A stretch of 64,000 nucleotides of DNA from assembly GCA_041674525.1 (NCBI GenBank), contig JBAYVN010000002.1:9841-73840 (forward strand), given 5' to 3'. The notes beneath the pieces are model-generated. The model saw only the letters and a list, made by a program, of their open reading frames with translations. It was not told the origin of the DNA and ran no database searches. This DNA is from Dehalococcoidia bacterium. Lineage in GTDB: Bacteria > Chloroflexota > Dehalococcoidia > UBA2979. The translations under genes and the position numbers were made by a program. Shown here in pieces: positions 30,197 to 47,503 of the stretch (its first letter is position 1; each line of letters opens with the position of its first letter).

Positions 30197-30376
30197 ATGA
30201 CCGCTTTGACCTCTCTCATGGGCATGCTCTGGACCACGACTCACGACGAGGACGGCCAGACGATGGCCGAGTACGGGCTGATCCTGGCTGGCGTGGCCGT
30301 GATCGTCATGGCCGCGGTGTGGGCCCTCGGTGGCGCCATCAACGCGACGTTCGAGAGCATCGTGGGCCAGTTCTAA
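30197..30376 (+). CDS. flp: Flp-family type IVb pilin
   Basis: 59 aa. The leader ends ..EDG|QTMAEYGLILAGVAVIV (Flp G/xxxxEYG motif). GAGGAG RBS. Confidence 0.85.
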   Translation: MTALTSLMGMLWTTTHDEDGQTMAEYGLILAGVAVIVMAAVWALGGAINATFESIVGQF

Positions 30377-30394
30377 GCCCATCGCTGCGCGGGA

Positions 30395-30436
30395 GCCTGC
30401 AGAGCGCCCATTTTGCCGCCCGGGCGCTCTGCAGGC
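30395..30436 (+). terminator. Hairpin (15-bp stem, 12-nt loop) between the two flp genes
   Basis: gcctgcagagcgccc ... gggcgctctgcaggc. Typical of an attenuator after a major pilin gene. Confidence 0.5.
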
Positions 30437-30501
30437 TCAGCTCAAGCAGCTTCAGCGATACCGAACACGCCGATCAGGCACGTCTCCGGAAGGGATCCGC
30501 G

Positions 30502-30723
30502 ATGGCTCAGGTTGAACTTCCTGGAAGCGCACAGACCCCGTCGTCCACCTCGGCCGAACGAGGCGTCGACGGGCGGTGGCCGTCGGGCAGCCGTGAAGAC
30601 GGCCAGACGATGGCGGAGTACGGGCTGATCCTGGCGGGCGTGTTCGTGCTGGTCGCGGCAACCGTGCTCGCATTTGGCCCGGCACTGAGTGGCCTGTTCG
30701 AGCAGGTCATCGCGGAGTTCTAG
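30502..30723 (+). CDS. flp: Flp-family type IVb pilin, second copy with long leader
   Basis: 73 aa. Leader ..SREDG|QTMAEYGLILAGVFVLV, with the identical cleavage motif. Confidence 0.85.
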   Translation: MAQVELPGSAQTPSSTSAERGVDGRWPSGSREDGQTMAEYGLILAGVFVLVAATVLAFGPALSGLFEQVIAEF

Positions 30724-30760
30724 ATCCACCCAGCTGGCCTGAAGACGACGGGAGCGCGCT

Positions 30761-31180
30761 ATGCACCTTCCGAACGCCACCATCAAACCCGCCAACGAAC
30801 GGGGACAGGCCGTGCTGGAACTCGCTCTCATCATGCCCGTTCTCGTGATGCTCGTCTTTGGCGCGCTCGAGGTGGGGCGGCTGCTGAACGCATGGGTCGT
30901 GGTCACCGAAGCCTCGCGCGAGGGTGCCCGTGTCGCCGCAGCGAAGTGCACCTGGCAGGCCGGGTGCGGCACGCTCGTGCAGACGGGCGTCACCAACTCA
31001 CTGGCGGGGCTGGACGTCGCGCGATCGAGCTGGTCGATGACGACCGGTCCGTACGTCGCGGGCGACGCGGTCACGGTGAACGTCGATTACCGATCACAAC
31101 TGGTCGTTCCGCTGATCAGTTCGATCTTCGGCTCCGACGAGGTCACCGTGCACAGCCAGACGAGCATGAGGCTTGAATAA
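30761..31180 (+). CDS. tadE: TadE-like pseudopilin
   Basis: ERGQAVLELALIMPVLVMLVFGALEVGRLL N-terminal TadE/G signature (PF07811-like). Confidence 0.8.
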   Translation: MHLPNATIKPANERGQAVLELALIMPVLVMLVFGALEVGRLLNAWVVVTEASREGARVAAAKCTWQAGCGTLVQTGVTNSLAGLDVARSSWSMTTGPYVAGDAVTVNVDYRSQLVVPLISSIFGSDEVTVHSQTSMRLE

Positions 31181-32220
31181 TGCCTACCCTGCTCTTCCGC
31201 CACGTACTCTCCCTGTCGGCCTCGTGGCTCCGGCGCCTGCGCGTGGAGTCGGGAGCCGCCGCGGTCCTGTTTGCCGCGACGCTGCTCCCGATCGTCGGCA
31301 TCTCGTCGCTCAGCGTGGACGTGGCGAACGTCTTCCTCGACCGGCGCGAGCAGCAGAACGCGGTGGATGCCGCGTCGCTGGCCGCCGCCTCCTACCTGCC
31401 CACCACCAGCACCAGCGTCCTGAACAGCGCGACCAGCGCGGCGATCGAATTCGCCGCGGCGAACGGGGTCACGATCTCCGCCTCGGACGTCACGTACAGC
31501 ACGTCGAGCCAGCGATTCGACGTGGTCACCGTGCGTAGCGAGCGCACCGTTCCCTTCTTCTTCGCCGGAGCCATGGGCATCACCAGCGGCGCGGTGAGCA
31601 GCCGCGGCGCCTCGCAGCTCGGCTCCCTGGTGGGCATGACCGGCGTCATGCCGTGGGGGTTGCACCAGCAGACCTTCAACTTCTCAGCCCCGTACTGCCT
31701 GAAGATGGGCTCGAACGGCAACGGCGCGGACTGCAACCAGCAGAGCAGCGCCGGCGACTTCGGCCCGATCGACATCGACAACAACGGCAGCGCGTCCGGC
31801 AACCTGTACCAGGGCCTGATCATCACCGGCTCGCAGACCGAGGTGCTGGTCGGCCAGGTCAAGGGCACCGTCAGCGGCAACAAGCAGGGCCCCACGGAGT
31901 CCGCGCTTGGGTGCAGCAACAACAGCAACGGCCGCCTGACCGGCAACACGCAGACCTTCACGGACGTGCTGCGGGCCAACGCCGACGGCGTGACCTACAC
32001 CGTGCTGGACTGGAGCAGCCCGCGGCTGGTGATCATCCCGGTGATCCAGACGGTCGGAAACAACCTGATCCAGATCAAGGGACTCGTCGTCTTCTTCATC
32101 ACGGAATGCGGCCAGAACGGGTCGGTCATCGGCCAGTTCATCGACACCGTGGTGCCCGGCGGCAGGTGGGGCGTGTACCAGCCCGGGTTCGGTACGCGGG
32201 CGATCCGGATGATCGAGTGA
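31180..32220 (+). CDS. tadG: TadG-like pilus assembly protein (Tad N-domain protein)
   Basis: ESGAAAVLFAATLLPIVGISSLSVDVANVF N-terminus, then a Ser/Thr/Gly/Asn-rich beta region. Confidence 0.7.
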   Translation: MPTLLFRHVLSLSASWLRRLRVESGAAAVLFAATLLPIVGISSLSVDVANVFLDRREQQNAVDAASLAAASYLPTTSTSVLNSATSAAIEFAAANGVTISASDVTYSTSSQRFDVVTVRSERTVPFFFAGAMGITSGAVSSRGASQLGSLVGMTGVMPWGLHQQTFNFSAPYCLKMGSNGNGADCNQQSSAGDFGPIDIDNNGSASGNLYQGLIITGSQTEVLVGQVKGTVSGNKQGPTESALGCSNNSNGRLTGNTQTFTDVLRANADGVTYTVLDWSSPRLVIIPVIQTVGNNLIQIKGLVVFFITECGQNGSVIGQFIDTVVPGGRWGVYQPGFGTRAIRMIE

Positions 32221-32239
32221 TGCAGACGAGGGACGAGGC

Positions 32240-32953
32240 ATGAGAACACGATCACTGCTGCTATCGCTGATCTTCGCCGTGGTGGGCGGGGGGCTCACGC
32301 TCCTCGTCCTTCGCGGTCACACCGTGAGCCAGGCGCCACAGGCCGACGCGACCGAGCGCGTGGTAGTGCCCGTGCGCCCGATCGCCGTGGGCGACAAGCT
32401 CGGCGTCGCTGATGTGCGCACCGCAGTGCTCATGAAGGGAACGGCGCCCGAGGATTCTCTCCGGGATCCGGCCGAGGTGCAGGGGCAGTTCGCGCAGGTG
32501 CCGCTGGTCGTCGGGCAGCCGCTCCGCCGCGCGGACATGAGCAGCGCCGCGCCGGGCAGCCGCCTCGCCGCGATCATCCCGGACGGTCACATTGCGATCG
32601 CGGTCGGCGTGAGCGACGTGATCAGCACTGGAGGCTTCGTCGCCCCGGGTGACCACGTGGATGTCCTCGGCGTCGTGACGAAGGAGGCGCAGGACAGCGC
32701 GCAGGTGGTCCTGCAGGACGTCCTGGTGCTCGCGGTGTCCAACGCCCTGAACGGCACCGCCGACCCTGCCGCCTCCACCCGCAAGCCCGCGGCCGGCGGC
32801 GAGAACCCGAACGGCGTGCACTCCACGATCACCCTCGCCGTGACGACCCAGGAGGCGCAGCGCCTGGTGCAGGTTGACGAGCTGGGCAAGCTGCGATTCG
32901 CGCTCCGGCGTCGCATCGACGGTGGTACCGGTCCCGCAGCGGCGTCCAGGTAG
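32240..32953 (+). CDS. cpaB: Flp pilus assembly protein CpaB (RcpC) with SAF domain
   Basis: N-terminal TM, then a SAF-like segment (VVPVRPIAVGDKLGVADV) and an RcpC-like C-terminus. Confidence 0.75.
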   Translation: MRTRSLLLSLIFAVVGGGLTLLVLRGHTVSQAPQADATERVVVPVRPIAVGDKLGVADVRTAVLMKGTAPEDSLRDPAEVQGQFAQVPLVVGQPLRRADMSSAAPGSRLAAIIPDGHIAIAVGVSDVISTGGFVAPGDHVDVLGVVTKEAQDSAQVVLQDVLVLAVSNALNGTADPAASTRKPAAGGENPNGVHSTITLAVTTQEAQRLVQVDELGKLRFALRRRIDGGTGPAAASR

Positions 32954-32976
32954 CGAACGTAGCCAGGGGGGCATGC

Positions 32977-34194
32977 ATGGCACGAAACCCGTCACTCCTG
33001 CTCGTCGATGCGAACCCGGATCATCGCGCGCTGCTCCGGCAGCTCGTGTCCGGGCTGCCCTACGCCGTGGCCGCGGAGGCCAACTACGGCGTGGAGGCAG
33101 CGCGGCTCGCGGGCGAGCTCCAGCCCGAGATCGTCCTCGTGCACATCGAGGAGCCGCTCGCACTCGCGTTCCGCACTCTGGAAGTCGTGCAGCAGGCGGC
33201 CCCGCGTGCCGTGCCGGTGGTCATCTCGCGCCGCAATGACGGGGAGACCGCGCGCAAGGCGATGCTCTTCGGGGCGCGCGGCTTCGTCCTGAGCCCGCCC
33301 ACGGCCAACTCGATCGACGAGGTGCTCGCGCTGGCGAAGGCGCGGTACGACTCGACGATCCAGTCGGCGCTCGACGGGCTGCAGCTGGACGATGACGGCG
33401 CGATCCGCACCTCGGCGCTCGCCGGCGGCACGGTGATCACGGTCTTCGGGCCGAAGGGGGGCATCGGCAAGACGACGCTCGCCACCAACCTGGCGATCTC
33501 GATCCAGCGCCGGACCGAGGCGCGCGTCGCGATCGTGGATGTCGACGCGGACTTCGGCGACGTCGCCGTGATCATGGGCATCGAGCCGGAGCGCACCATG
33601 CGCGACCTGCTGGACGCGTACCGCGACGGCGAGCTGCCTCCGCTCCAGGACTTCATGGCGCTGCACAGCTCCGGCGTGCACGTCCTCGGCACCCGCCATG
33701 CGGAACGCATCGGGACGATGCCGGACCCGGATGCGATCGCCACGCTGATCCGCCAGTTGGTGCGCACGTATGACTTCGTGATCGTGGACACCCCCGGCGC
33801 GTTCGTGCCGCAGGTGGCCGCCGCCCTGGACGAGGCGACCACCGTGCTCCTCGTCACCAGCGCGGACCTCTCGAGCATCAAGGACGCACGCCTCGCGATC
33901 TCGATGCTGCGCGGGTCCGGATACCAGGGCGATCGCCTCAAGCTGGTCGTCAACCACGCCACCAACGCGAACTCCGTGTCCGATGCGGACGTGGCGCGCA
34001 CGGTGGGGTACGACGTCTTCTGGACGCTGCCGCACGACCGCGCGGTGCCGCAGTCCACGCAGCACGGCGAGCCCATCGTGATCTCGAACCCGCGCTCGCG
34101 CATGGCGCAGCGGGTCGACGCGCTGGCAACGTACCTGAGCGGCACCGGCGAGGTGCCCGAGCCCGAGCCGCGGAAGCGGCGCTTCTTCTGGTAG
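32977..34194 (+). CDS. cpaE: CpaE/TadZ: receiver-like N-domain + ParA/MinD-type ATPase
   Basis: Pseudo-receiver N-terminus and a deviant Walker A (GPKGGIGKTT). Confidence 0.85.
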   Translation: MARNPSLLLVDANPDHRALLRQLVSGLPYAVAAEANYGVEAARLAGELQPEIVLVHIEEPLALAFRTLEVVQQAAPRAVPVVISRRNDGETARKAMLFGARGFVLSPPTANSIDEVLALAKARYDSTIQSALDGLQLDDDGAIRTSALAGGTVITVFGPKGGIGKTTLATNLAISIQRRTEARVAIVDVDADFGDVAVIMGIEPERTMRDLLDAYRDGELPPLQDFMALHSSGVHVLGTRHAERIGTMPDPDAIATLIRQLVRTYDFVIVDTPGAFVPQVAAALDEATTVLLVTSADLSSIKDARLAISMLRGSGYQGDRLKLVVNHATNANSVSDADVARTVGYDVFWTLPHDRAVPQSTQHGEPIVISNPRSRMAQRVDALATYLSGTGEVPEPEPRKRRFFW

Positions 34195-34208
34195 GACTGG
34201 AGGCATCA

Positions 34209-35672
34209 GTGGCCACGGAAATGCTGCGTCACCGCTTCCGATCGCCCGGGAGCGAGCCGCCCGCCCCGGCGCCGGGCACCCAGGGCACCCCGGGCACCCC
34301 GGGCACGTCCGCGCTGGAAGCGGCGGTCAACCTCGCCGCGGCCGGGGACATCTCGCCGATCGGCGAGGGGCCGCTGATGCGCTGGGCGGCCGAGCCGCCG
34401 CCCCTGCCGCCCTCGCTCGTGCGGCTGAAGGAGACCGTGCACGAGCAGCTGATCGAGGAGGTCGACCCCGGGTCGCTGGACCCGGAGGGCGCTCGCCGGC
34501 TGGTGCGCGAGGTGGCCACGGAGCTCCTCGGCCAGCAGGACGTGCGCGGCGTCGCCGAGTACCGCGATCGCCTGGTCAACGAGATCGCGGATGAGGTGCT
34601 GGGGCTCGGCATCCTGGAGCCGCTGCTCCGCGACGACTCCGTCACCGAGATCATGGTGAACGCCCCCGACGGCATCTTCGTCGAGGTGGGCGGCCGGCTG
34701 TTCCGGAGCACGTACGCATTCCGCGATGAGGCTCACCTGATGCGCATCATCGAGCGCATCGTGGCGCCGATCGGCCGGCACGTGGACGAGAGCTCGCCCA
34801 TGGCGGATGCGCGCCTCCCCGACGGATCGCGCGTCAACATCGTCGTCCCGCCGGCCTCGCCGCACGGCGCGAAGCTGACGCTCCGCAAGTTCGCGCGGCA
34901 CCGCATGCGGGCCGAGGACCTGGTCCGGCTGAGGGCGCTCTCCAGCGACGCCACGCTGTTCCTGCAGGGCGCCGTCCGAGCGCGACTCAACATCCTCGTC
35001 TCCGGAGGCACCGGCAGCGGCAAGACCACGCTGCTGAACGTGCTGTCCTCGTTCATCAGCGATGGAGAGCGCATCGTCACGATCGAGGATCCCCTGGAGC
35101 TCCAGCTGCAGCAGATCCACGTCGTCGCGCTCGAGGCGAAACCGCCGGGGATCGAGGGATCGCGGCAGATCACGCAGCGCGACCTGGTGCGAAACGCGCT
35201 GCGCATGCGCCCCGACCGGATCATCATCGGCGAGGTCCGCGGTGCCGAGGCGTTCGACATGCTGCAGGCGATGAACACCGGCCACGAGGGATCGATCAGC
35301 ACGGTGCACGCCAACACCCCCCGCGATGCCCTGAGCCGCGTGGAGAACATGGTGATGATGGCGGGCTTCGACCTCCCGGATCGCGCGATTCGGGAGCAGG
35401 TCGCCTCGGCGATCCACCTGCTGGTGCAGGTCGCAAGGATGTCCGATGGCAGCCGCAAGGTGACGCACATCACCGAGGTCGCGGGGATGGAGGGACAGGC
35501 GATCACGATGCAGGACCTGTTCCTGTTCCAGACGACAGGCCGGGACGACCACGGCCGGGTGCAGGGAGAGCTCCAGGCCACCGGGCTGCAGCCGCACTTC
35601 CTGGGCCGGTTCGCGGAGCGCGGCATCCACCTCCCGCAGGACATCTTCCACAGCACGAGGTGGTCGGAATGA
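34209..35672 (+). CDS. cpaF: CpaF/TadA secretion ATPase (type II/IV secretion NTPase)
   Basis: Walker A (GGTGSGKTT), Asp/His boxes (TIEDPLEL ... TGHEGS). Confidence 0.9.
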   Translation: MATEMLRHRFRSPGSEPPAPAPGTQGTPGTPGTSALEAAVNLAAAGDISPIGEGPLMRWAAEPPPLPPSLVRLKETVHEQLIEEVDPGSLDPEGARRLVREVATELLGQQDVRGVAEYRDRLVNEIADEVLGLGILEPLLRDDSVTEIMVNAPDGIFVEVGGRLFRSTYAFRDEAHLMRIIERIVAPIGRHVDESSPMADARLPDGSRVNIVVPPASPHGAKLTLRKFARHRMRAEDLVRLRALSSDATLFLQGAVRARLNILVSGGTGSGKTTLLNVLSSFISDGERIVTIEDPLELQLQQIHVVALEAKPPGIEGSRQITQRDLVRNALRMRPDRIIIGEVRGAEAFDMLQAMNTGHEGSISTVHANTPRDALSRVENMVMMAGFDLPDRAIREQVASAIHLLVQVARMSDGSRKVTHITEVAGMEGQAITMQDLFLFQTTGRDDHGRVQGELQATGLQPHFLGRFAERGIHLPQDIFHSTRWSE

Positions 35673-36619
35673 TGCTGGCGGTGATCGCCGCTCTGACCGT
35701 GGGCGCCGCCGGGTTCTTCGGCGCGCTCAGCATCCTCGCGCCCGCGGAGCGCAGGCGAACGACCGCCGCCGCGCGCCTCACATCGATCGCCGATCACGAG
35801 AGCGTCTTCGAGCCCGGCTTCGAGGCCCTCGGACGGCGGCTCGGGCCGAGCAACCTGGACCGCCAGCTCGTGCGCTTCCCGCTGGGATCGATGATCAAGC
35901 GGGATCTCCAGCGCTCAGGGCTTGCCTGGCAGGTCCGCGACTACATCGGCGTGATGCTGGTGCTGGCAGTGGTCGGCGGTTCCGTGGCCTTCCTGTTCTC
36001 GGCGACCGCGTTCCCGCTCGGCGGGCTCGCGGGCGCACTGGTGCCGGTGCTCATCGTCAAGCGCATCGCCTCCAAGCGGGCGTCACGCCTGAACGGCCAG
36101 GTCGTGGACCTCGTGGAGCTGCTCGCCTCGTCGCTCCGATCGGGCTTCAGCTTCGTACAGAGCCTGGAGCTGGCGCTGCGCGAGCAGCCCGAACCCATGG
36201 CCGGCGAGCTCCGGCAGGTGATGCGCGAGACCAGCCTCGGCATGAGCACCGACGAGGCCCTCCAGCGCCTCGCGGACCGCACCGGGGACGAGGATCTCGG
36301 GCTCGTGCTGACGGCTGTGCTCATCCAGCGCCGCGTCGGCGGGAACCTCGCGGAAGTGCTCGGCGGGATCGTGGAGATGATCCGCGACCGTGCGCGGGTC
36401 CGCGGCGAGATCCACACCCTGACCGCGCAGGCCCGCATGTCCTCGTGGATCGTGGGATCGCTGCCCGTGGTGCTCGCCATCGTGATGTCGATGATGCAGA
36501 AGGGCTACATGGCGGCGCTGTACACCGAGCCGGTGGGCCGGCTCATGCTGATCGCGGCCGTCGTCCTCGAGGTGATCGGACTGTACCTCGTGCGGCGGAT
36601 CGCGTTCGTCGACTACTAG
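35669..36619 (+). CDS. tadB: TadB (T2SS-F family inner membrane platform protein)
   Basis: T2SSF domain pattern. ATGA overlap with cpaF. Confidence 0.85.
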   Translation: MMLAVIAALTVGAAGFFGALSILAPAERRRTTAAARLTSIADHESVFEPGFEALGRRLGPSNLDRQLVRFPLGSMIKRDLQRSGLAWQVRDYIGVMLVLAVVGGSVAFLFSATAFPLGGLAGALVPVLIVKRIASKRASRLNGQVVDLVELLASSLRSGFSFVQSLELALREQPEPMAGELRQVMRETSLGMSTDEALQRLADRTGDEDLGLVLTAVLIQRRVGGNLAEVLGGIVEMIRDRARVRGEIHTLTAQARMSSWIVGSLPVVLAIVMSMMQKGYMAALYTEPVGRLMLIAAVVLEVIGLYLVRRIAFVDY

Positions 36620-36659
36620 CCGAGAACGGACAGAGCGGACAGAGCGGACGGAGCCAGCG

Positions 36660-37568
36660 GTGTTGCTCACAGTATTCGCAGCGCTTTCGGTAGCGGCGGC
36701 GGCCTTCTTCGGCGGCCGGGCCGTGCTCGTGCACGAGTCCGGTCGAAGCGCCGCGCGCCTGCAGGAGATCGCGAGCTCCGGCGAGCCGTTCGACCCGGAT
36801 GCCGACCAGGGCACGGTCTGGGATCGCCTCGTCAGGCCATTACTGCGCGGCGCCGCGGAGCGGTTCAGCGCCCTGCTCCCGACGCGCCTGGCGCAGTACT
36901 TCGAGGGACAGCTGATCGTGGCCGGCGATCCGGTCACCCCGCATGCCTACGCGCTCTTCGTGCTCCTGCTGCCGGCTGCGCTGGCGCTCGGGCCGCTGGT
37001 CGTCGTGTTGCGCACTCACAACCTGTCGCTGGCGACGTTCGGAGTGCTCGCCGCGTGCCTGACGCTGGGCGTCGCCGCACCGCCGATCTGGCTGAAGGGG
37101 CGGATCGCCCGGCGGCAGATGGCGCTGGTGCGCAGCCTCCCGGACGCGGTCGACCTCGTCGTCGTGTCGGTGGAGGCCGGTCTCAGCCTGGAGGGCGCGC
37201 TCGGGCGCGTGGCGGAAGGGCAGGACGGCCCGCTGGTGCAAGAGCTCCGGCGTGCATTGACCGAGATGAGCCTCGGCATGGGCCGGCGGCGGGCGCTCCA
37301 GGGCCTCGTCGATCGCACGCAGCTCCCGTCGCTCCGCTCGCTGGTGAGTGCGATCGTGCAGGCGGAGATGACGGGCATGGGCATTGCCCAGGTCCTGCGC
37401 GCGCAGTCGCTGCACCTGCGGACGCAGCGCCGCCAGCGCGCCGAGGAGCAAGCGATGAAGGCGCCGCTCAAGATGCTCTTCCCGCTCGTCTTCTTCATCT
37501 TCCCCTCGCTCTTCGTGGTGGTGCTGGGCCCCGCGGTGTTCTCCCTGCTCCGGGCGCTGGGCCAGTAG
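36660..37568 (+). CDS. tadC: TadC (T2SS-F family inner membrane platform protein)
   Basis: T2SSF domain pattern. GTG start. Confidence 0.85.
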   Translation: MLLTVFAALSVAAAAFFGGRAVLVHESGRSAARLQEIASSGEPFDPDADQGTVWDRLVRPLLRGAAERFSALLPTRLAQYFEGQLIVAGDPVTPHAYALFVLLLPAALALGPLVVVLRTHNLSLATFGVLAACLTLGVAAPPIWLKGRIARRQMALVRSLPDAVDLVVVSVEAGLSLEGALGRVAEGQDGPLVQELRRALTEMSLGMGRRRALQGLVDRTQLPSLRSLVSAIVQAEMTGMGIAQVLRAQSLHLRTQRRQRAEEQAMKAPLKMLFPLVFFIFPSLFVVVLGPAVFSLLRALGQ

Positions 37569-37577
37569 GAGCGTGAC

Positions 37578-37994
37578 ATGACGAGCGAGCAGCCCCGTCC
37601 GCTGGCGGCAGGCGAACCTCGACGCGACACGCGCGCCGTGCTGCGATGCTCGCGCACGGACGTGCTGGTGGTGACGCGGCTCCGCGTCGCGGGCAACATG
37701 CTGTCGCGCCTGAAGGGCCTCCTGGGCAGCGCAGAGCCCGCGCCGGGTGACGGCCTGTGGATCGTGCCGTGCTCCGGCGTGCACACGGTGGGGATGCGCT
37801 ATCCGATCGACGTCGTGTTCCTCGATCGAGCGGGCCGCATCGTCGCCACGCGTCCGGAGCTCCGGCCGCTGCGCGCCGTGCCCTGGGTGCGACATGCGCA
37901 CAGCGCTCTGGAGCTGCGGCAGGGAGCGATCGCCCGCTGCGATCTGCGAACCGGCGACGTGCTCGTCGTCGACCCCGGCGGGACCGCGGGGTGA
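37578..37994 (+). CDS. DUF192 (COG1430) domain protein embedded in the Tad operon
   Basis: ..WIVPCSGVHTVGMRYPIDVVFLD.. matches the DUF192 core. 9 nt after tadC. Confidence 0.7.
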   Translation: MTSEQPRPLAAGEPRRDTRAVLRCSRTDVLVVTRLRVAGNMLSRLKGLLGSAEPAPGDGLWIVPCSGVHTVGMRYPIDVVFLDRAGRIVATRPELRPLRAVPWVRHAHSALELRQGAIARCDLRTGDVLVVDPGGTAG

Positions 37995-38052
37995 TCGAGG
38001 TAATCGGGATCGAGGTGGTTGTGATCGAGGTGGTTGTGATCGAGGCGATCGG
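37993..38052. repeat. Four tandem copies of a 15-bp unit (GATCGAGGTGGTTGT)
   Basis: gatcgaggtaatcgg, gatcgaggtggttgt, gatcgaggtggttgt, gatcgaggcgatcgg. Fills the gap between the DUF192 stop and the cpaA start. Confidence 0.85.
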
Positions 38053-38055
38053 GTG

Positions 38056-38598
38056 ATCCGCGTCATCGAGCCGCGCACGGCGATCGCCGAGACCAGCGCG
38101 CATACGCCCGCGTGGCGCAGCAATGTGTCGCTGGGCGTGCTCGCCGGGGTCACCGCCGGCGCTGCCGTCGCGTTCATGCTCCCCGCGGCGCGATGGCTGC
38201 CCCTGCTCGTGATCTTCGCCCTCGCCGCGGGGATCGACTGGCGGACGCGGCGCATCCCCAACTGGCTGACGGCGGGCGGCGGGGCGTTCGCCCTGCTCAC
38301 GGCCGGCGGCGCGCTCGGCGCATCGCTCCTCGGCGCCGCGGTGGCGCTCGGGGCGGGGGTGGTCTTCGTCGTGCTGGCCCGCGGCGCGTTCGGAATGGGC
38401 GACGTGAAGCTCCTGGCGGTGGCGGGGGCGGCGACGGGCGCGGCAGCGTTGCCCGGCGTGCTCCTGGTGATGTCTATCGCCGGCGGTGTCCTGGCGTTGT
38501 GGGCCATGGCGACCGGTCGAGGTCCGGGCCCGCGCACCATCGCTTACGGTCCGGCGATCGCCGTGGGCGCGGCCGCCGCGATCTGGCTCGAACGCTAG
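38056..38598 (+). CDS. cpaA: Prepilin peptidase (A24 family; CpaA/TadV)
   Basis: Multi-TM with catalytic Asp motifs (..GMGDVKLLAVAG..). GTG start. Confidence 0.8.
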   Translation: MRVIEPRTAIAETSAHTPAWRSNVSLGVLAGVTAGAAVAFMLPAARWLPLLVIFALAAGIDWRTRRIPNWLTAGGGAFALLTAGGALGASLLGAAVALGAGVVFVVLARGAFGMGDVKLLAVAGAATGAAALPGVLLVMSIAGGVLALWAMATGRGPGPRTIAYGPAIAVGAAAAIWLER

Positions 38599-38631
38599 GC
38601 AAGCAGTCGACGGAGGCCGGCCACGGGCAAC

Positions 38632-38961: not shown

Positions 38962-38999
38962 ACACGCTCGCCAGTCTGCAAGCGCGGAGCGTGTCCGGG

Positions 39000-40925
39000 C
39001 TACGCCTCGCCAGGCGCCGCTGCGACTTCACTCGCGCCGAACCGCAGCGTGTGCGCCCCGATGCGCATGGCCTCGCCCGGGGCGAGGATCGTCCACTCGG
39101 CGGTGCCGTCCGAGCGCGACGCCGGATCGCTCGTGAGACGCTGCACCCGCAGGTTGCCGTCCGGCGCGATCGTGACGCGGGCATGACGTGGCGCGATCTG
39201 CGGCCCGGTGACGACGATGTCACACGACGGCTCGCTCCCCAGCACCAGCCCCTCACCCACCGGGTGGCTCTCCGGGTCGCCCTGTGGCCCCTCCACGGTG
39301 ATCGCGAGTGCGCTGCCGGGCGTCCAGAGATTCACGCGATCGCCGATCATCCGGACGCCGCGCGGCTGCAGCTCCCCGACCCCGGGCGTTGCGACTCGAG
39401 GCGGCCGCCGCCTCAGCGTCTGCCACCCGACCGTGGCGATCGCGGCGGCCACCAGCGCCGCAACGAGCGCGATGATCGCGAGCGGGTTCACCCCCGCCGA
39501 CACGCCGGCGCTCTCCGTGCGGATCACCGCGCCGCTCGCATCGAGCAGCGCCAGCGTCAGGCCGCCGGACGGGGGATCCTGCATGCGGAGCTCCGGCGCG
39601 CTTCCCCGCGCGAGCTCGCGCCCGTCGCCGGTCACCACGATCGTCGCGGCGCGGCCCTGTACACGGCCGCTCACCACGAGGGTCCTCGGCGGGCCGTTCT
39701 CAACGCGGGACGACAGCGTGGAATCGAGCTGCGGAACGTCGATCGACAGCGTCTCGGTCGCGGCGGTCCGGCCGTCGACCATCGCGGTGACGGTCACCAC
39801 GGTCACGCCCGGCGGGAACGCCCACGGGTCGATGCTGATGCTGCGATCACGCCCCCACGGCACGCTGGTGCCGCTCAGCGATGCGGTCAGCTGCAGCGTG
39901 TCCGGGCGCGCCGGGCCATCGAGCGTGATCACGATCGGACCATCAGGCCGGGCCGACGGGATCGCGCGCGGCTTCAGCAGGCCGTCGTTCGTGACATCGA
40001 ACGACAGCCCGGCAGTCTCGACGCCACCGGCGACGGAGACGCGCACGGAGACCTCGTGCGATCCGTTCGCGAGCACGGGGATCGAGGCGTCCACCAGGAA
40101 CAGCGTGTGCAGGCGATCACCGAGCGCCGTGAGCACGCCGCCCAGTGCCTGGACGTTCGCCACCGCCTGGTAGGTGCCGCCGGTCGCCATCGCCAGCTCG
40201 GAGAGATAGGCGGCGTCCGGATCGGCGCCCAGCCCGAACGCGAAGATCCGCGCGCCTGCCCTGCGCGCGGCATCGAGGCTTTGCGAGCGCGTGACCTTCG
40301 AGACCCCGCCCACCTCCTCGCCCTTGCGCAGCGGCGCATTCGAGAGCACCACCAGCACGTGCCGTCCCGGCGATGCCGGTCCGAGGGCGTTCGCACCGAG
40401 CGCCACGGCGTCGTAGAGTCCGGCATTGCCACCGGCCGCGATGTTCGTGATCCCCGTGCGGAGGCGCGTGCGATCGGTGGAGAGCGGCACGACGACCTTC
40501 GTGCTGTCCGCGAAGGTGATCAGCCCGACCTGGTCCGCGGGACCCAGGCGGTCGACCAGCGCGCGCGCGGCGTCCTTCGCCGCGATGAGTGGCGCGCCCC
40601 GCATGCTGTCGCTGGCGTCGACGGCGATCAGCACCGAGGCGGCGGGGGGCACCTGCCGGGAGACCGCGGGCGCCGGGACCTCACGACCGTCGATGGATAC
40701 CGCGAGCTGGGTGGCATCGATGGCGCTCCCCAGCGGACCGAAGAGCGAGATCAGCAGGTGGCCATCCACGCGGTAGGAGACCTCCGAGATCCCCAGCGCC
40801 CCGGGCGGGCGCTGCGCTCGTCCGGACTGCGGGACGAGCGCCCACGACACGGCGATGCTGACGAGTAGCGCGAAGAGCAACGACCGTCGCCCGCGAGGCA
40901 GGCTGATACGCCAGTGGAGCCACAT
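39000..40925 (-). CDS. Signal peptide - vWA domain - beta-rich extracellular region - TM - C-terminal FHA domain protein
   Basis: 641 aa. N-terminal signal (LLFALLVSIAVSWA). vWA MIDAS-like pattern (VLIAVDASDSM ... ITFADS ... VVLSNAP). TM near residue 470 (LAIIALVAALVAAAIATV). C-terminal FHA-like motifs (..GSEPSCDIVV..APRHARV..LTSD..GT..LAPGEAMRIGAHTLRFG). Confidence 0.7.
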   Translation of the reverse strand: MWLHWRISLPRGRRSLLFALLVSIAVSWALVPQSGRAQRPPGALGISEVSYRVDGHLLISLFGPLGSAIDATQLAVSIDGREVPAPAVSRQVPPAASVLIAVDASDSMRGAPLIAAKDAARALVDRLGPADQVGLITFADSTKVVVPLSTDRTRLRTGITNIAAGGNAGLYDAVALGANALGPASPGRHVLVVLSNAPLRKGEEVGGVSKVTRSQSLDAARRAGARIFAFGLGADPDAAYLSELAMATGGTYQAVANVQALGGVLTALGDRLHTLFLVDASIPVLANGSHEVSVRVSVAGGVETAGLSFDVTNDGLLKPRAIPSARPDGPIVITLDGPARPDTLQLTASLSGTSVPWGRDRSISIDPWAFPPGVTVVTVTAMVDGRTAATETLSIDVPQLDSTLSSRVENGPPRTLVVSGRVQGRAATIVVTGDGRELARGSAPELRMQDPPSGGLTLALLDASGAVIRTESAGVSAGVNPLAIIALVAALVAAAIATVGWQTLRRRPPRVATPGVGELQPRGVRMIGDRVNLWTPGSALAITVEGPQGDPESHPVGEGLVLGSEPSCDIVVTGPQIAPRHARVTIAPDGNLRVQRLTSDPASRSDGTAEWTILAPGEAMRIGAHTLRFGASEVAAAPGEA

Positions 40926-41072
40926 GTGCGGAGGTTACGCTGCCGGTCCGCGCGCTGTCACGCTAGCGCACGCACAGCGCGACGGGACAGGCGAGGTGGA
41001 CGTGAGATTTGGCGACACCGGGCCTTCCGTACTATCTGGTGCTGTCCACGAACGTTCTCGGAGGGGAGAGAC

Positions 41073-41555
41073 ATGACACTGGTTCGTTCGGGGCGCGGGT
41101 TGCGCTCCCTGATCCTCGGGCTGACGGCGATGGCGGCGACGGTTGCAGTCGCCTGCGGCGGAGATTCGACCACGAAGGCCGACATCCCGCCCGCACCGAC
41201 GGCGACCGTGGAGACCGCGCCGACGGGACCGAACGTGAGCGTGGCGAAGGTCGCCTCGATCGGTGACGTGCTCGTGGATCCGAAGGGGATGACGCTCTAT
41301 ATCTCGAGCGAGGACACCTCTGGCAAGAGCAACTGCACGGGCAACTGCGCGGCCAACTGGCTGCCGCTCAAGGCGTTCAACGGCGTCGCGGCCAAGGCGG
41401 ACGGCGTGCCCGGCGAGCTCGGTGTGATCACACGCGCCGATGGGGTGCAGCAGATCTCCTACAAGGGGATGCCGCTGTACCGGTACGCCGGTGACTCCGC
41501 CGCAGGCGAGGCGAAGGGCATCACTGTGATGAACTGGGCGGTGGCCGCTCCCTGA
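41073..41555 (+). CDS. Secreted lipoprotein with two copies of the 'secreted repeat of unknown function' (COG4315 / Lipoprotein_15-like)
   Basis: Lipobox (AVAC). Repeats ..VLVDPKGMTLYIS.. and ..GMPLYRYAGD.. with CxGxCAxxW. GGAGGGGAG RBS. Confidence 0.7.
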   Translation: MTLVRSGRGLRSLILGLTAMAATVAVACGGDSTTKADIPPAPTATVETAPTGPNVSVAKVASIGDVLVDPKGMTLYISSEDTSGKSNCTGNCAANWLPLKAFNGVAAKADGVPGELGVITRADGVQQISYKGMPLYRYAGDSAAGEAKGITVMNWAVAAP

Positions 41556-41648
41556 TCGAGGCCGTCCCGCTGGCACGATGCTGACCGGCGCGCCGGACGC
41601 AGCATCGGCGGCCGCGCGGGTGATCGTGATCACAGGGGTCGAAGAGAG

Positions 41649-41674
41649 GAAGGTCCGCCCCGGGGCGGACCTTC
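41649..41674. terminator. Palindromic hairpin gaaggtccgcccc/ggggcggaccttc
   Basis: Between the convergent lipoprotein (+) and AAA+ (-) genes. Confidence 0.6.
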
Positions 41675-41785
41675 CCGCTCCCCGCCCCCCAACTCCGCGC
41701 ACACCCCGCCCGACCTCGCCGCAGTCGCGTGGCGACGCGGGCGGTCCCGCACGCCCGATGGCCATCGATCCCGCGGCCGTCGTGC

Positions 41786-43192
41786 TCAGCTCATCGCCTC
41801 CCGCCAGGGCAGCACGTGATCCGGACGGGACGTCCGCGCGACGAAGTAGATGCTGGCGGCCTCGGCTAGGGCCTCCACGCTCAGGCGAGCCCGCTCGCCG
41901 CGGTAGGCCGCGCAGTCCAGCAGGATGCGGATGATGTCCGTGGGGTGGCACCCGCGGTATTCGCGCTCCGCCTCCTCGTACTCCCTGCGCATGAACGCCA
42001 CGGTCACGTCCGGGTCGTCGACAAGCCCCACCGCAGCCGAGGCGCGATGCATCAACTCAACGAACTCCTCGCGCGTGGGATCCGGGACGTGGATCTTGTA
42101 GCGGATCCGCCTCAGGAATGCCTCGTCTCCCAGCTCGGCGGGAGCGCGATTGGATGAGAAGACCACGAGCACGTCGAAGGGGACGCGGATGGTGCCTTCG
42201 GTCCGCATGCGGAGCTGATCCCACCCCGCCTCCAGCGGTGTGATCCAGCGGTTGAGCAGCTCGCTGGGTCGCACGCGCTGCCGTCCGAAGTCATCGACGA
42301 CGAGGATGCCTCCGTTGGCCTTCAGCGGAGGCGGCGCGTTGTAGCAGCGGTTCGCCTCATCCCACTGCAGCTCCAGGTCCTCCAGGACCAGCTCGCCCCC
42401 GAGCGTGACGATGGGCCGGCGGCACGCCACGTATCGACGATCGTAGGCGGGCAGATCCTCGGTGAGCGGCTCGTGCACGCGCGGATCGAAGATCGTGATC
42501 GTCTGGTGCCCCACCTCGACGGCGTACGGCACGAGCACGCGGCCCTCGAGCATGTCGCGCATGGCGCGGGTGATGCTGGTCTTGCCGTTCCCGGGCGCGC
42601 CCGAGAACAGGATCGAGTGGCTCGAGTTCACAGCGACGCCAATCGTGTCGATCAGCGGGCTGGACAGCACGAGTCCGGAGAGCGCCCGCGCCACTGCCGG
42701 GCGCGGCACGCGCATGGCGTGCACCGACTGCCGCTCCAGCAGCGCCGCGTACTGCGCCCACGATACGGGTGCCGGCCCCACGTAGCCGTTGCGCTCCGCA
42801 GCGGTGACCGCCTGGTCGCGCCCACTGGCGGTGAGCAGGTAGTTGAACCACTGCTCACCCTGCGACGCGCTGCCGGAGATCTGCACCAGCCGCTCATGCT
42901 TCAGCGGGGCCATCACCTCGTCGATCACGCGGGGGGACAGGCACAGCACGTCCGCGATCTCGCGCGGTGTCGCGCTCCCGCTTGCGAGGATGTACTTGAG
43001 CACGAGTCCGCGCAGGGTGTCCTCGGCGAGGCCGGTCTCGTCCACGGTGCGTGGCTCGGTGGGCAGCGAGTCCGGCCACCCGCCAGCGTCGAGGCGCCCA
43101 CCGGCGTTGAGGTGCCCACCGGCTTCGATGTGATCGCCGCCCGGGAACAGGCGGTCCGCGGCCGGCTCGGCGAGACGCGTGCGTTGAAGCAT
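41786..43192 (-). CDS. Winged-HTH (MarR-like) N-domain + AAA+ ATPase; uncharacterised family
   Basis: About 468 aa from MLQRTRL with an AGGAAG RBS. wHTH pattern (LRGLVLKYILASGSATPREIADVLCLSPRVIDEVMAPLKHERLV..YLLTASGRD). Walker A (GAPGNGKTS), Walker B (ILVVDDFG), sensor-1 (VVFSSN), Arg (FLRRIRY). Confidence 0.65.
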   Translation of the reverse strand: MLQRTRLAEPAADRLFPGGDHIEAGGHLNAGGRLDAGGWPDSLPTEPRTVDETGLAEDTLRGLVLKYILASGSATPREIADVLCLSPRVIDEVMAPLKHERLVQISGSASQGEQWFNYLLTASGRDQAVTAAERNGYVGPAPVSWAQYAALLERQSVHAMRVPRPAVARALSGLVLSSPLIDTIGVAVNSSHSILFSGAPGNGKTSITRAMRDMLEGRVLVPYAVEVGHQTITIFDPRVHEPLTEDLPAYDRRYVACRRPIVTLGGELVLEDLELQWDEANRCYNAPPPLKANGGILVVDDFGRQRVRPSELLNRWITPLEAGWDQLRMRTEGTIRVPFDVLVVFSSNRAPAELGDEAFLRRIRYKIHVPDPTREEFVELMHRASAAVGLVDDPDVTVAFMRREYEEAEREYRGCHPTDIIRILLDCAAYRGERARLSVEALAEAASIYFVARTSRPDHVLPWREAMS

Positions 43193-43324
43193 CGGTACTT
43201 CCTGATTCTCCTCAGCGCGTCCGCGCACCACGAGCGCGACGCGCATCACGCGCATCCGCGCGCCGCTCAAGCCGGCGAGGCGACGGCATGGGGTTCACTC
43301 GGCTCCCGCATCGTGCGGCGTGCA

Positions 43325-43735
43325 TCACGGCGTGCACGGCGCGGGCGACACGGGCAGCGGCTGCGTCTCGTACGCGGGCCGGTCCCCCGCGACCAGGAAC
43401 ACGTCTACCCAGGTCAACAGCCCGCTCGCGCTCGTCGCGGTGACCGAGGCGGACCCGTGCCGGGTCCCCTTTACCGCGAAGGAATCGAACAGCACCTGCG
43501 CGCCGGGCTGCGGGTCGTACCCGGTGACGTACCCGCCGGTGGCGCGCACGTTGTCCCAGGCAACATCGATGCGGAACGCCCCGCCGCCGGCGTCGCACGC
43601 GCTCACGGTGACGGCCGCCTGCGGCTGGCCGGCCTCGACCGGCCGCGGGATCGCGGTGATCGTGGCTGCTGCGATCAGCCCGGCCGCCGAGGCGAGCGCC
43701 AGCGGCTTCACGAGGCCCGTTCGCTTCCAGTACAT
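43325..43735 (-). CDS. Small secreted hypothetical protein
   Basis: Starts at MYWKRTGLVKPLALASAAGLIAAATITA (signal peptide) with a GGTGAGGGGAG RBS. About 136 aa; no known motif recognised. Confidence 0.5.
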   Translation of the reverse strand: MYWKRTGLVKPLALASAAGLIAAATITAIPRPVEAGQPQAAVTVSACDAGGGAFRIDVAWDNVRATGGYVTGYDPQPGAQVLFDSFAVKGTRHGSASVTATSASGLLTWVDVFLVAGDRPAYETQPLPVSPAPCTP

Positions 43736-43904
43736 CGGGATGCTCCCCTCACCCCCGCGCCACGACTGGCGCCCTCGCCAACGCAGAACGGGGGGCTTCA
43801 CACGCCGCCCGTTCGTATAAATGCTGTACGCGTCTGTATGTGACGCGTCGCATTTCATATGAGGCGGAACACAGCGTGCGTCGCCGGAGCGCGAGCAGTC
43901 CCTG

Positions 43905-44165
43905 CTACGCGCCTGCCTCCCCGCGGAGGGTCTCGAACGCGGCGGCGGCGGGCCGGGTGTCCGGTCCGCTGACGGTCGCGCGAAGAGATGGCAGCGCGGA
44001 CGACACGGGCGGCGTGGGCCGTCGAGTCTCCATCACCGGGACCTCATTGCGGTTGAAGATGCGGGTCATGACGAGCCACGCCGTGTCAAAGTCCACGTCG
44101 CGCTCCACGTTGACGCCCTCGCCCTTGATCTGGATGACAAACCGCTCACTGTCGACGTTTGGCAT
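43905..44165 (-). CDS. Small hypothetical protein
   Basis: MPNVDSERFVIQIKGEGVNVERDVDF... with a GGGAGG RBS. 86 aa; no motif recognised. Confidence 0.45.
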   Translation of the reverse strand: MPNVDSERFVIQIKGEGVNVERDVDFDTAWLVMTRIFNRNEVPVMETRRPTPPVSSALPSLRATVSGPDTRPAAAAFETLRGEAGA

Positions 44166-44440
44166 GATGCCTCCCAGCACAATTCACCTCCCACAGGGAG
44201 GGCCCTACCTGGAATGACTGCCCGAGGGCGGTAGTTCTTACAGGCGCACCCACCCCGGGCGCGCCAGGCGCACGAGTAGCGAGCCGGGCCACCCGCGCGC
44301 GAGCGGATTCGCGAGGTGGCAGCCCGGGCGGGCGAACGGAACCCGGCCTGGCACGTTTGTAGCGATACCGACCGTGTCCGGGGCCGCACGTTCAGCGTTC
44401 GCCCCCCGGACGAGCTGGGCCTCGCCCCGGAGCACACCGC

Positions 44441-44698
44441 ATGCTCGATACCCTCAGGACCGCGCGCACGGAACGGCGAGCCGCCGAGGCGGAGCGCGAC
44501 ACGGTGCTCCCGGAGATGCCCCCGGAGGTGGAGATGCCCCCGGACGCCATGGACGCCATGCGCCGGGCCGGGGAGGCGCTCGACGGCCCACCGGAGAGCC
44601 GCTGCCTCGTCTGCGAGCGCTTCATCGCTGCGTTGCTCGCCGAGCGCGACCGGCTCAGGCGGTTCGACGCCCCCGTCACGGGGCAACCCGTTCGCTGA
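44441..44698 (+). CDS. Possible small hypothetical protein (Cys-x2-Cys containing)
   Basis: 85-aa ORF with no clear RBS. Kept at low confidence. Confidence 0.25.
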   Translation: MLDTLRTARTERRAAEAERDTVLPEMPPEVEMPPDAMDAMRRAGEALDGPPESRCLVCERFIAALLAERDRLRRFDAPVTGQPVR

Positions 44699-44879
44699 GT
44701 TCCGCTGCCTGGTCTTCGCTCGCTGGCCCTGAGCATCCTCGGGAGCCCGGTCGCGGTCTCCGCGCGCGTCACCGCGTCCCTGCCCGGCGCGCCCCCTCCT
44801 CGCGCGCCACTTGCGGTCGACGCCGGACGCGCGCACCGTGGCCGGAGCGTGCGGAGCCGTTGCTCCGTGAGGGGGCAGC

Positions 44880-46172
44880 GTGCGCCGGTTCTTTCCGAAT
44901 GTGTACGAGGGCTGGCTGATCGTCGCGGCTTCCGCCTTCTACATCACGCTCACCTCGGGCGCGATCAACTACGGCTTCGGCACGATCTTCCTGCCCCTCC
45001 GCGAGGAGTTCGCGTGGAGCGTGGCGGCCACGGCCTTCGCGTTCTCCATCCGGCAGGAGGCGAGCGGCGTCGCCGCGCCGTTCATCGGCATGATCAACGA
45101 CCGCTGGGGCCCGCAGCGCACGGTCGCCCTGGGTGTGCTGATCGTCTCCAGCGCGGTGTTCGGCCTGTCGCTGATCCAGAACATCTGGGAGTTCTACGGC
45201 GTGATGCTGATGATCTCCGTCGGTGCGAGCAGCGTGGGCGGGCCTGTCGGCATGGCGGCCGTGACCACGTGGTTCGAGCGGCGTCGAGCGTGCGCGCTGG
45301 CGCTGATGACGATCGGCGGCGGCCTCGCGGGCGTCATGGTCGTGCCGATCGCCGCGCTGGTGGAGGGCATGGGCTGGCGCGGCGCGCTGCGCGTGGAAGC
45401 CCTGGTGCTCCTGGTCGCCGGCCTCGTGCCGGCCACCACCACGCGCTTCCGCCCGCCCGATCACCACCAGCCCATGGACGGCATCCGCGCGTCCGCGGAC
45501 GGCGCACCGGCGAAGCCGACCGTGCGCTGGGGGATCCCGGCCCGCCAGGCCGTGCGCACTCCCTCGTTCGTCATGCTCACCGTGGGGCTCGCGGGACTGT
45601 CGTTCGGGACCGCGACGGTGACCGTGCTGCAGATCCCGTTCCTCGAGTCGGTCGGGTTCCCCACCACGGTCGCGGCATCCACGGTCACGTTCTATGCGCT
45701 GTCATCCGTCGCCGGGCGGATCGGCTTCGGCTTCCTTGCCGATCGCTTCAACCCGCGACTCATCCTCGCCACCTGCGTCGGGATGACGGCGATCGGGCTC
45801 GCGCTATTGCCGCTGGTGCGCACGCCATGGGAGGCGGTGGCCGTGCTCGCGCTGCTCGGCCCGGGCTTCGGCGGCTCGGTCCCTGTGCGCACCGCGATGA
45901 TCGCGGACAACTACGGCACCATGCACTTCGGGACGATCAACGGCATCGCGACCTTCGTGCGCACCATCGGCTCCGCGCTGGGCCCGCTGACCGTCGGCTA
46001 CGCCATCGACCGGTCGGGGGCGTACACCATCGGCTGGCTGCTGGCCGCCGGCGTGGTCGGAGCGGGACTCATCGGCGTGCTCCTGGAGCGCCCGCCCGAG
46101 GCGCTGCGGTCGGAGTGGCGCGCCCGCGCGGAGGAGACCGCGGGCCCGGCGACGGCAGCGCACCGCGCCTGA
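44880..46172 (+). CDS. MFS transporter (oxalate/formate-antiporter-like architecture)
   Basis: 12-TM pattern. N-terminal GWLIVAAS motif is shared with the two MFS paralogs at 58817 and 62988. GTG start. Confidence 0.8.
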   Translation: MRRFFPNVYEGWLIVAASAFYITLTSGAINYGFGTIFLPLREEFAWSVAATAFAFSIRQEASGVAAPFIGMINDRWGPQRTVALGVLIVSSAVFGLSLIQNIWEFYGVMLMISVGASSVGGPVGMAAVTTWFERRRACALALMTIGGGLAGVMVVPIAALVEGMGWRGALRVEALVLLVAGLVPATTTRFRPPDHHQPMDGIRASADGAPAKPTVRWGIPARQAVRTPSFVMLTVGLAGLSFGTATVTVLQIPFLESVGFPTTVAASTVTFYALSSVAGRIGFGFLADRFNPRLILATCVGMTAIGLALLPLVRTPWEAVAVLALLGPGFGGSVPVRTAMIADNYGTMHFGTINGIATFVRTIGSALGPLTVGYAIDRSGAYTIGWLLAAGVVGAGLIGVLLERPPEALRSEWRARAEETAGPATAAHRA

Positions 46173-47463: not shown

Positions 47464-47503
47464 CCGCCTCGGTCCACCCCTGCCCGCGCCGCGGGCCCGC
47501 GCA

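Follow-up and report, generated by a model that had tools for sequence, protein, structure and literature searches.

The 64,000-nucleotide stretch of a Dehalococcoidia bacterium contig analysed in this work (JBAYVN010000002.1, positions 9,841 to 73,840 of the forward strand, hereafter the window) encodes, next to a complete Tad/Flp pilus locus, an ATPase in which an N-terminal winged helix precedes an AAA+ core. We found that this protein is a member of a very large, unnamed and unstudied family and that genes of the family are associated with Tad genes in several phyla. We regard the finding as a variant Tad locus with an undescribed, widespread winged-helix AAA+ accessory ATPase, for which a neighbouring protein combining a vWA domain, a transmembrane (TM) helix and an FHA domain (vWA-TM-FHA) is a likely signalling partner in the Dehalococcoidia lineage. 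With moderate confidence, we lean towards an accessory role for the family at Tad/Flp (type IVc) loci, where its product would act as a signal-controlled cytoplasmic remodeller of the pilus machine. The original prediction on this DNA had grouped the ATPase with two small upstream open reading frames (ORFs) and a nearby vWA-FHA gene in a module that was possibly regulatory or conflict-related; neither the complete Tad/Flp locus next door nor the linkage to CpaF, TadB and TadC across phyla was mentioned.

Genomic association with Tad loci

The association between the AAA+ family and Tad genes is solid. Eighty loci of the family, taken with up to 10 kb of flank from GTDB species-representative genomes, were searched with the window proteins, and a locus was called Tad-linked when CpaF (E<1e-50) or TadB/TadC was found inside the available flank. 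This was the case for 25 of the 80 loci and for 12 of the 36 having at least 8 kb on both sides, while we estimate chance proximity at about 1-2% from the number of Tad loci and the size of the genome. The linkage was replicated under strict criteria in an independent sample of 80 metagenome contigs, mostly short (13/80, and 7/31 when the flank was 6 kb or more). Among the genome loci, it was observed in 12 of 13 from Gemmatimonadota, 3 of 4 from Dehalococcoidia, 3 of 5 from Acidobacteriota and 3 of 8 from Chloroflexia. In a neighbour-joining tree, the Tad-linked members are distributed over at least four clades, including that of the window protein. Regarding the reach of this survey, the metagenome scan was performed with a six-sequence alignment and yielded relatives of 44% identity or less, exact peptide patterns from the window AAA+ protein had no metagenome match, and synteny above 50% identity is that of P0005, P0006 and P0002 only.

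The way in which the genes are joined varies from one lineage to another. In Gemmatimonadota and Vicinamibacteria, the order is TadZ-CpaF-TadB-TadC-DUF192-AAA+ on a single strand, whereas Chloroflexia display TPR-DUF6812-AAA+-CpaF with a gap of 16 bp between AAA+ and CpaF. A Dehalococcoidia-like contig (L088) whose AAA+ protein is 50% identical to that of the window carries TadZ-CpaF-TadB-TadC-A24-vWA-AAA+, again on a single strand and with a 22-bp gap. In three other Dehalococcoidia loci (L008, L010 and L038), AAA+ diverges from the Tad locus and a vWA gene, while the arrangement is convergent in the window. Finally, the AAA+ gene of a Zixibacteria genome is located about 4-5 kb from RcpC, TadE and A24, with the gene of a Big_1 protein directly upstream. 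These differences in gene order argue against simple inherited synteny. They also bear on the view that the protein is a general cytoplasmic AAA+ unfoldase or quality-control factor, for which the window neighbourhood would be incidental and the linkage elsewhere would result from lineage-specific operon drift. Such a function would suit the Lon-like AAA+ fold described below, the loci devoid of nearby Tad genes, which are the majority, and the metabolic genes found as neighbours in two groups: a branched-chain aminotransferase-like gene in Myxococcota and a gene in Anaerolineae that resembles a glycerophosphodiester phosphodiesterase by eye, no family search having been run. However, drift accounts poorly for a linkage that is seen in four clades or more, with different orders and spacings of 16-22 bp, that is far above the roughly 1-2% we estimate for chance, and that reappears in an independent contig set, and we consider this explanation distinctly unlikely.

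The window contains all the components of a Tad/Flp system: besides the Flp pilins, CpaF, DUF192 and the A24 prepilin peptidase (Table 1), the locus encodes TadE, a TadG-like protein, RcpC/CpaB, TadZ (receiver domain REC plus ParA), TadB and TadC. From its end, 3.2 kb separate it from the AAA+ gene, an interval occupied by a small ORF, the vWA-TM-FHA gene and a lipoprotein gene.

Several observations weigh against a dedicated function in Tad pili. No Tad gene is present within 10 kb in about two thirds of the family loci, and the linkage is low in Anaerolineae (1/15), Myxococcota (0/7) and Limnocylindria (0/3). No Tad genes are found near P0006, the closest relative on a long contig (49% identical), and, in the window itself, the AAA+ gene is on the strand opposite to the Tad operon, beyond an unrelated lipoprotein gene. 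The family members fused to an FHA domain (see below) are not Tad-linked in the short contigs at hand. At the level of the active site, the two consecutive aspartates of the Walker B motif suggest that ATP turnover may be slow and that the protein may act as a switch. In the literature that we searched, no paper was found tying the family to Tad, and no description emerged of the family with Tad pili, or by way of DUF192 or of vWA/FHA proteins in Tad loci. Since the linkage is not universal, a broader cellular role stays in play: the family may serve more than one process or may target Tad genes at other sites in the genome.

Some additional features of these loci deserve mention. DUF192 (COG1430), which comes directly after TadC in the window and in L011, L014, L021, L029, L037, L053, L061, L064, L065, L072, L079 and L081, is placed between TadC and AAA+ in Gemmatimonadota and Acidobacteriota and looks like another conserved, unstudied Tad accessory gene. 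In Chloroflexia, the four-gene cassette (L012, 8219-12757; L066, 8853-12790) has the CpaF-like ATPase as its last gene, and no TadB/TadC homologue was detected in its 10-kb flank. The CpaF-like ORF of L059 is longer at its N-terminus (661 aa), and this extension is receiver-like by eye, no family search having been run. In the window, both Flp pilins share a common processing site and mature N-terminus (...EDG/QTMAEYGLILAG), the leader of the second being longer, and the true start of the A24 peptidase is probably near 38000-38100.

Family, fold and motifs of the ATPase

The window ATPase is 100% identical to the public entry P0001 ('ATP-binding protein [Dehalococcoidia bacterium]'), whose gene call agrees with the ATG listed in Table 1. 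This codon, preceded by AGGAAG 6 nt upstream, is the likely start, and the G+C content at third codon positions (GC3) of the gene is 0.88. The family comprises more than 7,800 clusters at 90% identity in a search limited to 8,000 candidates, with 1,385 matches at E<=1e-30 among the 50%-identity cluster representatives, most members being either unnamed or labelled 'predicted ATPase with chaperone activity'. An alignment of 27 family sequences contains 53 invariant positions, which include blocks in Walker A (GxxGNGKT), Walker B (DDFGRQ), the LLNRW helix, sensor 1 (N348), DEAFLRRIR and sensor 2. The original prediction had reported the motifs GAPGNGKTS, VVDDFG and the sensor-1 asparagine, as well as the ATPase gene and the two small ORFs, and all of these are present as claimed. 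It had also placed the ATPase outside the families that could be named, which agrees with our searches: matches in Pfam, NCBIfam and PADLOC were confined to the P-loop, partial or below cut-off, and a search of PDB sequences with the single protein or with the 27-sequence profile returned generic P-loop similarity and no sequence relative. Two more specific affiliations suggested at that time did not withstand this comparison. Membership of MoxR/AAA_5 was rejected on profile scores below the curated cut-offs, AAA_5 reaching 19.5 bits (cut-off 22) and bpMoxR 17.2 bits (cut-off 27) over the P-loop region only (residues 171-219). Similarly, the winged helix had been called MarR-like, but no MarR match was obtained; the matches were scattered and sub-threshold, to SufR, AlkZ-like, HTH_24 and HTH_34 in one member each.

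The AlphaFold (AF2) model of the protein, which is confident, with a predicted local distance difference test (pLDDT) of 85 and a predicted template modelling score (pTM) of 0.81, bears out the fusion of a winged helix to an AAA+ core, the two being joined by a linker. The winged helix is modelled as three helices and a beta wing over residues 57 to 120 or so. Between Walker A and Walker B, the model displays a beta-rich insertion of about 80 residues (strands within 218-285). This block is the true insertion of the protein. The segment RVRPSELLNRWITPLE, previously taken for a helix-2 insert, forms the helix just after Walker B; in the model, it leads into the pre-sensor-1 beta hairpin and is an ordinary element of the AAA+ superclade to which the protein belongs. 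We read it as the counterpart of the LLxxhEE helix in MoxR/NtrC/BchI. The chain ends about 17 residues past the last helix of the AAA+ lid, and a C-terminal S16 protease domain (Lon_C) was not found. No signal anchor was seen at the N-terminus, and the highest 19-residue hydropathy (1.65, its segment not being located) is borderline with respect to the cut-off of 1.6. In the explanation that we favour, the protein is cytoplasmic.

In structural comparisons, the best match was the hexamer of Pyrococcus furiosus Q8U0N8 (PDB 8P49; score of 17.7), with which the AAA+ core fold is shared. The AAA+ module of archaeal LonB came second (15.5), in line with a Lon-type AAA+ fold, and FleQ, NtrC, CbbQ, NorQ and ComM scored about 13. 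Q8U0N8 is only 18-19% identical to the window protein (phmmer E of 0.21), and 8P49 was not among the best 60 of 144 profile matches. Its publication assigned no function to the protein and noted that the N-terminal domain is flexible; as an uncharacterised archaeal homo-hexamer, it is informative on hexamer formation only and not on mechanism. In comparison with archaeal LonB (PDB 4ZPX and 3K1J), the window protein lacks the C-terminal protease domain as well as the membrane anchor, its insertion being instead the soluble beta-rich block.

The presence of a winged helix raises the question of a transcriptional regulator that would bind flp/tad promoter DNA, with the AAA+ ring as an activator or switch that depends on ATP and on signals, in the manner of enhancer-binding proteins. 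Regulators often sit beside the operon they control, Sigma54_activat gives weak matches in 10 of the 27 family members, and the FHA, PAS-like and HDOD fusions found in some relatives resemble the layout of enhancer-binding proteins. However, the Sigma54_activat profile is missing from the match list of the window protein itself, and the GAFTGA loop that characterises sigma-54 enhancer-binding proteins (PilR, FleQ, FlrC and NtrC) is lacking from the family, a GAFTGA-like pattern (regex G[AS][FY][TS]G[AS]) matching 0 of 27 members. Moreover, enhancer-binding proteins carry a basic helix-turn-helix (HTH) at their C-terminus, while the winged helix of the family is N-terminal and acidic in 27 of 27 members (net charge from -1 to -6, median -4), and the helix at the presumed recognition position reads RVIDEVMAPLKHE / V-I-D-E-V-L. 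Given also that Lon and 8P49 are better structural matches than enhancer-binding proteins, we regard a role in transcription as unlikely. The acidic winged helix, the missing GAFTGA loop and the Lon-like fold together favour remodelling or gating, with the winged helix as a dock.

FHA domains, vWA neighbours and the proposed role

The vWA-TM-FHA gene that lies between the Tad locus and the AAA+ gene starts 860 bp from the AAA+ stop codon, the distance initially given being correct, with a plus-strand Lipoprotein_15 gene in between. Its product is composed of a signal anchor, the vWA domain, an Ig-like region, a TM helix (residues 482-500) and a cytoplasmic FHA domain, and its MIDAS motif is intact (DASDS, for DxSxS). 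From this order, we predict that vWA faces the exterior of the cell and FHA the cytoplasm. The same domain set is found in the vWA proteins of L088 and L010, while that of L008 consists of vWA, Big_7 and a TM helix and returned no FHA-type Pfam match. A vWA gene adjoins AAA+ in about 11 related loci and in three arrangements: adjacent upstream (L088 and L089), divergent (L008, L010 and L038) or immediately downstream (L123, L131, L140, L144, L155 and L159). This makes vWA the second most frequent neighbour of the family, CpaF/TadB/TadC being commoner.

The suggested AAA+/vWA module thus holds as far as vWA is a recurrent neighbour and FHA domains are fused to the family, but a MoxR-type contact between the two proteins is topologically unlikely since the vWA domain is flanked by a signal anchor on its N-terminal side and by a TM helix on its C-terminal side. 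This argument weakens the idea that the ATPase is a MoxR-type chaperone that remodels the neighbouring vWA protein or loads metal into its vWA/MIDAS, as in NorQ/NorD and CbbQ/CbbO. The adjacency in about 11 loci, the intact MIDAS and the weak AAA_5 and bpMoxR matches would be consistent with such a chaperone. Nevertheless, both profiles are under threshold and bpMoxR covers the P-loop region only, the vWA domains come after a signal anchor, and in the Dehalococcoidia proteins also before a TM helix, which by prediction puts them outside the cytoplasm, whereas the ATPase has no signal anchor, Tad genes are more frequent neighbours than vWA, and TadG-type vWA proteins are ordinary members of Tad loci (PMC4858521). 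Taken together, these points make it quite improbable. With an ATPase devoid of signal anchor and a vWA domain outside the cell, any direct contact between the two proteins would be with the FHA domain. A comparable association of vWA, FHA and MoxR-GvpN has been described around archaeal (thaumarchaeal) type IV pilus loci and in the regulation of the archaellum (Makarova et al. 2016, PMC4858521). The window family resembles the MoxR-class ATPases with vWA partners (NorQ/NorD and CbbQ/CbbO) and the archaeal vWA (ArnB), FHA (ArnA) and MoxR-GvpN genes linked to type IV pilus loci, in that its AAA+ gene recurs beside vWA genes and an FHA domain within a type IV filament locus. In contrast to those MoxR systems, the window ATPase is not a MoxR by hidden Markov model score, the filament system is a bacterial Tad and not an archaeal one, and vWA, which a TM helix links to FHA, is placed outside the cytoplasm by prediction.

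A second connection with FHA comes from the family itself. Among 17 scanned members with N-terminal extensions, four are fused to an N-terminal FHA domain (P0147, P0159, P0160 and P0164), two have weak PAS-like N-terminal matches (P0209 and P0248) and one has an HDOD match (P0180). That FHA domains are found fused to members of this AAA+ family provides a 'Rosetta stone' clue, which hints that FHA signalling may feed into the ATPase. Several further family members carry N-terminal extensions of 100-380 residues without Pfam match. A precedent for this type of wiring, to be taken as an analogy only, is the Fha1-ClpV coupling of the Pseudomonas H1 type VI secretion system, reportedly the work of Mougous et al. 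in 2007 and Hsu et al. in 2009. There, an FHA protein that reads phospho-threonine is said to control the recruitment of an AAA+ protein to an envelope-spanning machine, although both the machine and the AAA+ class (ClpV/Hsp100) differ from the present case. No gene for a Ser/Thr kinase or phosphatase was found among those scanned in the window (about 28.7-62.4 kb).

Besides, a small gene that resembles an extracytoplasmic function (ECF)-type sigma factor by eye, no family search having been run, is found beside vWA-TM-FHA in L008 (6072-6650), L010 (5104-5679) and L038 (5743-6384), which hints that the vWA-TM-FHA protein might have a further role in a sigma/anti-sigma-like circuit.

In the accessory function that we favour, the ATPase would form a hexamer, by analogy with its closest structural match (8P49), and would spend ATP to remodel or gate the cytoplasmic part of the pilus machine. 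The likeliest target would be the CpaF motor or the TadZ/TadB/TadC platform, on which the acidic winged helix would serve as a docking domain. Signal inputs would control the activity of the ATPase; in some relatives, these would be the fused FHA, PAS-like or HDOD domains, whereas in the window the vWA-TM-FHA protein might plausibly provide the input in trans through its cytoplasmic FHA domain. Extending this proposal, the Tad pili of several phyla outside the Proteobacteria (Chloroflexota, Gemmatimonadota, Acidobacteriota and Zixibacteria) would include a second, so far unrecognised ATPase, a signal-gated winged-helix AAA+ hexamer sitting on CpaF/TadZ that would switch assembly, retraction or motor turnover. 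In Dehalococcoidia, this ATPase would be wired via phospho-threonine and FHA to a surface vWA receptor, so that contact outside the cell would control the motor inside. We offer this wider picture tentatively and place it on the unlikely side.

Surrounding genes and implications for Tad pili

Table 1. Positions of the genes, domains and motifs discussed in the text (window numbering).
Feature	Position	Strand	Remarks
Complete Tad/Flp pilus locus	30197..38598	+	Pfam matches and Flp sequences
Flp pilins, two in tandem	30197-30376, 30502-30723	+	
CpaF	34209-35672	+	
DUF192	37578-37994	+	Directly after TadC
A24 prepilin peptidase	37747-38598 (as listed)	+	Overlaps DUF192; Pfam domain from residue 153
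Small ORF, no family match	38632-38961	+	Ends the Tad locus; GC3 0.91
vWA-TM-FHA gene	39000..40925	-	Pfam VWA 5e-14, FHA / Yop-YscD_cpl; convergent with the end of the Tad locus
Lipoprotein_15 / SCO0930-like lipoprotein gene	about 41073..41555	+	Between the vWA-FHA and AAA+ genes
Winged-helix AAA+ ATPase gene	41786..43192	-	468 aa from ATG at 43192; longest ORF 41786-43270 from TTG
Sensor-2 region RGCHPTD	41936-41956	-	
Arg-finger region GDEAFLRRIR	part of 42101..42160 (DEAFLRRIR 42101-42127)	-	R361 and R362 invariant
Sensor-1 FSSN	42149-42160	-	N348 invariant
Helix after Walker B, RVRPSELLNRWITPLE	42230..42277	-	Model: helix 309-322, then strands 324-328 and 334-338; LNRW invariant
Walker B VVDDFG	42284..42301	-	DD instead of the usual DE; followed by invariant GRQ
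Walker A GAPGNGKTS	42575..42601	-	G198, G201, N202 and K204 invariant in 27 sequences
Winged-helix domain	42788..43045	-	Residues about 50-135; model: helices 57-71, 76-83 and 87-99, strands 103-106 and 117-120
Secreted 136-aa ORFan	43325..43735	-	Hydrophobic residues 12-26, then VEA/GQ; upstream of AAA+
86-aa ORFan	43905..44165	-	Short structured N-terminal part, Pro/Ala-rich tail; Shine-Dalgarno GGGAGG
Small ORF, no family match	44441-44698	+	GC3 0.91; divergent from the 86-aa ORF
ECF-like sigma factor with C-terminal DUF6596, and YCII-domain gene overlapping or following	46186-47962	-	

The two small genes located upstream of the ATPase, a signal-peptide protein and an 86-aa protein of no recognisable family, are real: GC3 is of coding type (0.93 for the 136-aa ORF and 0.86 for the 86-aa ORF) and each has its own Shine-Dalgarno sequence. 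The 86-aa ORF had no match in Pfam, NCBIfam or PADLOC, and a single-sequence model of the 136-aa protein (pLDDT 78) shows a generic Ig/FN3-like beta sandwich that gives no functional lead. They were expected to be conserved neighbours of the ATPase. However, both matched only themselves among 5.8 billion protein clusters and had no tblastn match in 169 related loci, and in the closest relative (P0002, 63% identical) a divergent 296-aa gene is present upstream of AAA+ instead. Consequently, of the neighbourhood initially proposed, vWA co-occurs with AAA+ while the small ORFs do not, and a conserved three-gene module was rejected on these grounds, even though the ATPase matches no characterised family. 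In the same vein, the three genes were said to be cotranscribed in orientation. They are co-oriented, but their cotranscription is not shown: the spacers are of 132 and 169 bp, and a consensus scan of 38500-45000 for promoters and terminators, uninformative at 70% GC, found none. Between the 86-aa and 136-aa ORFs, at about 43800-43860, an AT-richer patch (…catatgaaatgcgacgcgtcacatacagacgcgtacagcatttatacgaac…) contrasts with the 70% GC background and may contain a promoter of its own for the secreted ORFan.

Could the ATPase and the two small ORFs nonetheless form a conflict or defence module? Their common orientation, the absence of a known family for the small proteins and weak IetA matches in PADLOC confined to the P-loop would speak for it. 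On closer inspection, IetA and TRIP13 match the P-loop region of the ATPase only, the best IetA match spanning 28 residues, and MkoB gives a partial match (E of 2.3e-05) over winged-helix residues 60-127, while no PADLOC match was returned for the small ORFs or the vWA-FHA protein. The small ORFs are unique to the window contig, GC is uniform at about 70% throughout the window, and the genes scanned at about 44.9-62.4 kb belong to housekeeping families only (tRNA, integrase and transposase genes were not searched for specifically). A defence island or mobile element was rejected on the uniform GC, the housekeeping neighbours and the partial nature of the PADLOC matches, nothing points to the conflict-related role once suggested, and such a module is highly improbable, indeed close to refuted.

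The lipoprotein gene likewise had zero tblastn matches in the related loci, and the best explanation is that this gene and the two small upstream ORFs are lineage-specific passengers. Further away, the ECF-like sigma/YCII pair appears unrelated to the AAA+ finding.

In the current view, Tad pili are driven by one bifunctional motor, CpaF, with assistance from the ParA-like TadZ, and the switching between extension and retraction is open (PMC6920026, PMC11300603 and PMC12019362). A conserved extra AAA+ ATPase in the Tad operons of little-studied phyla would thus be a new candidate control point, and the signal domains that are fused to it or encoded in its vicinity add to this case. Tad systems have also been argued to derive from archaeal pili (PMC6668835); as the nearest structural relative of the ATPase is archaeal too, the origin of the family is worth examining. 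To conclude, the AAA+ family is not categorically new biology, but it provides a testable candidate for the control of single-motor Tad pili, and the link to Tad would give a first functional handle on an unannotated family of 1,385 representative clusters.

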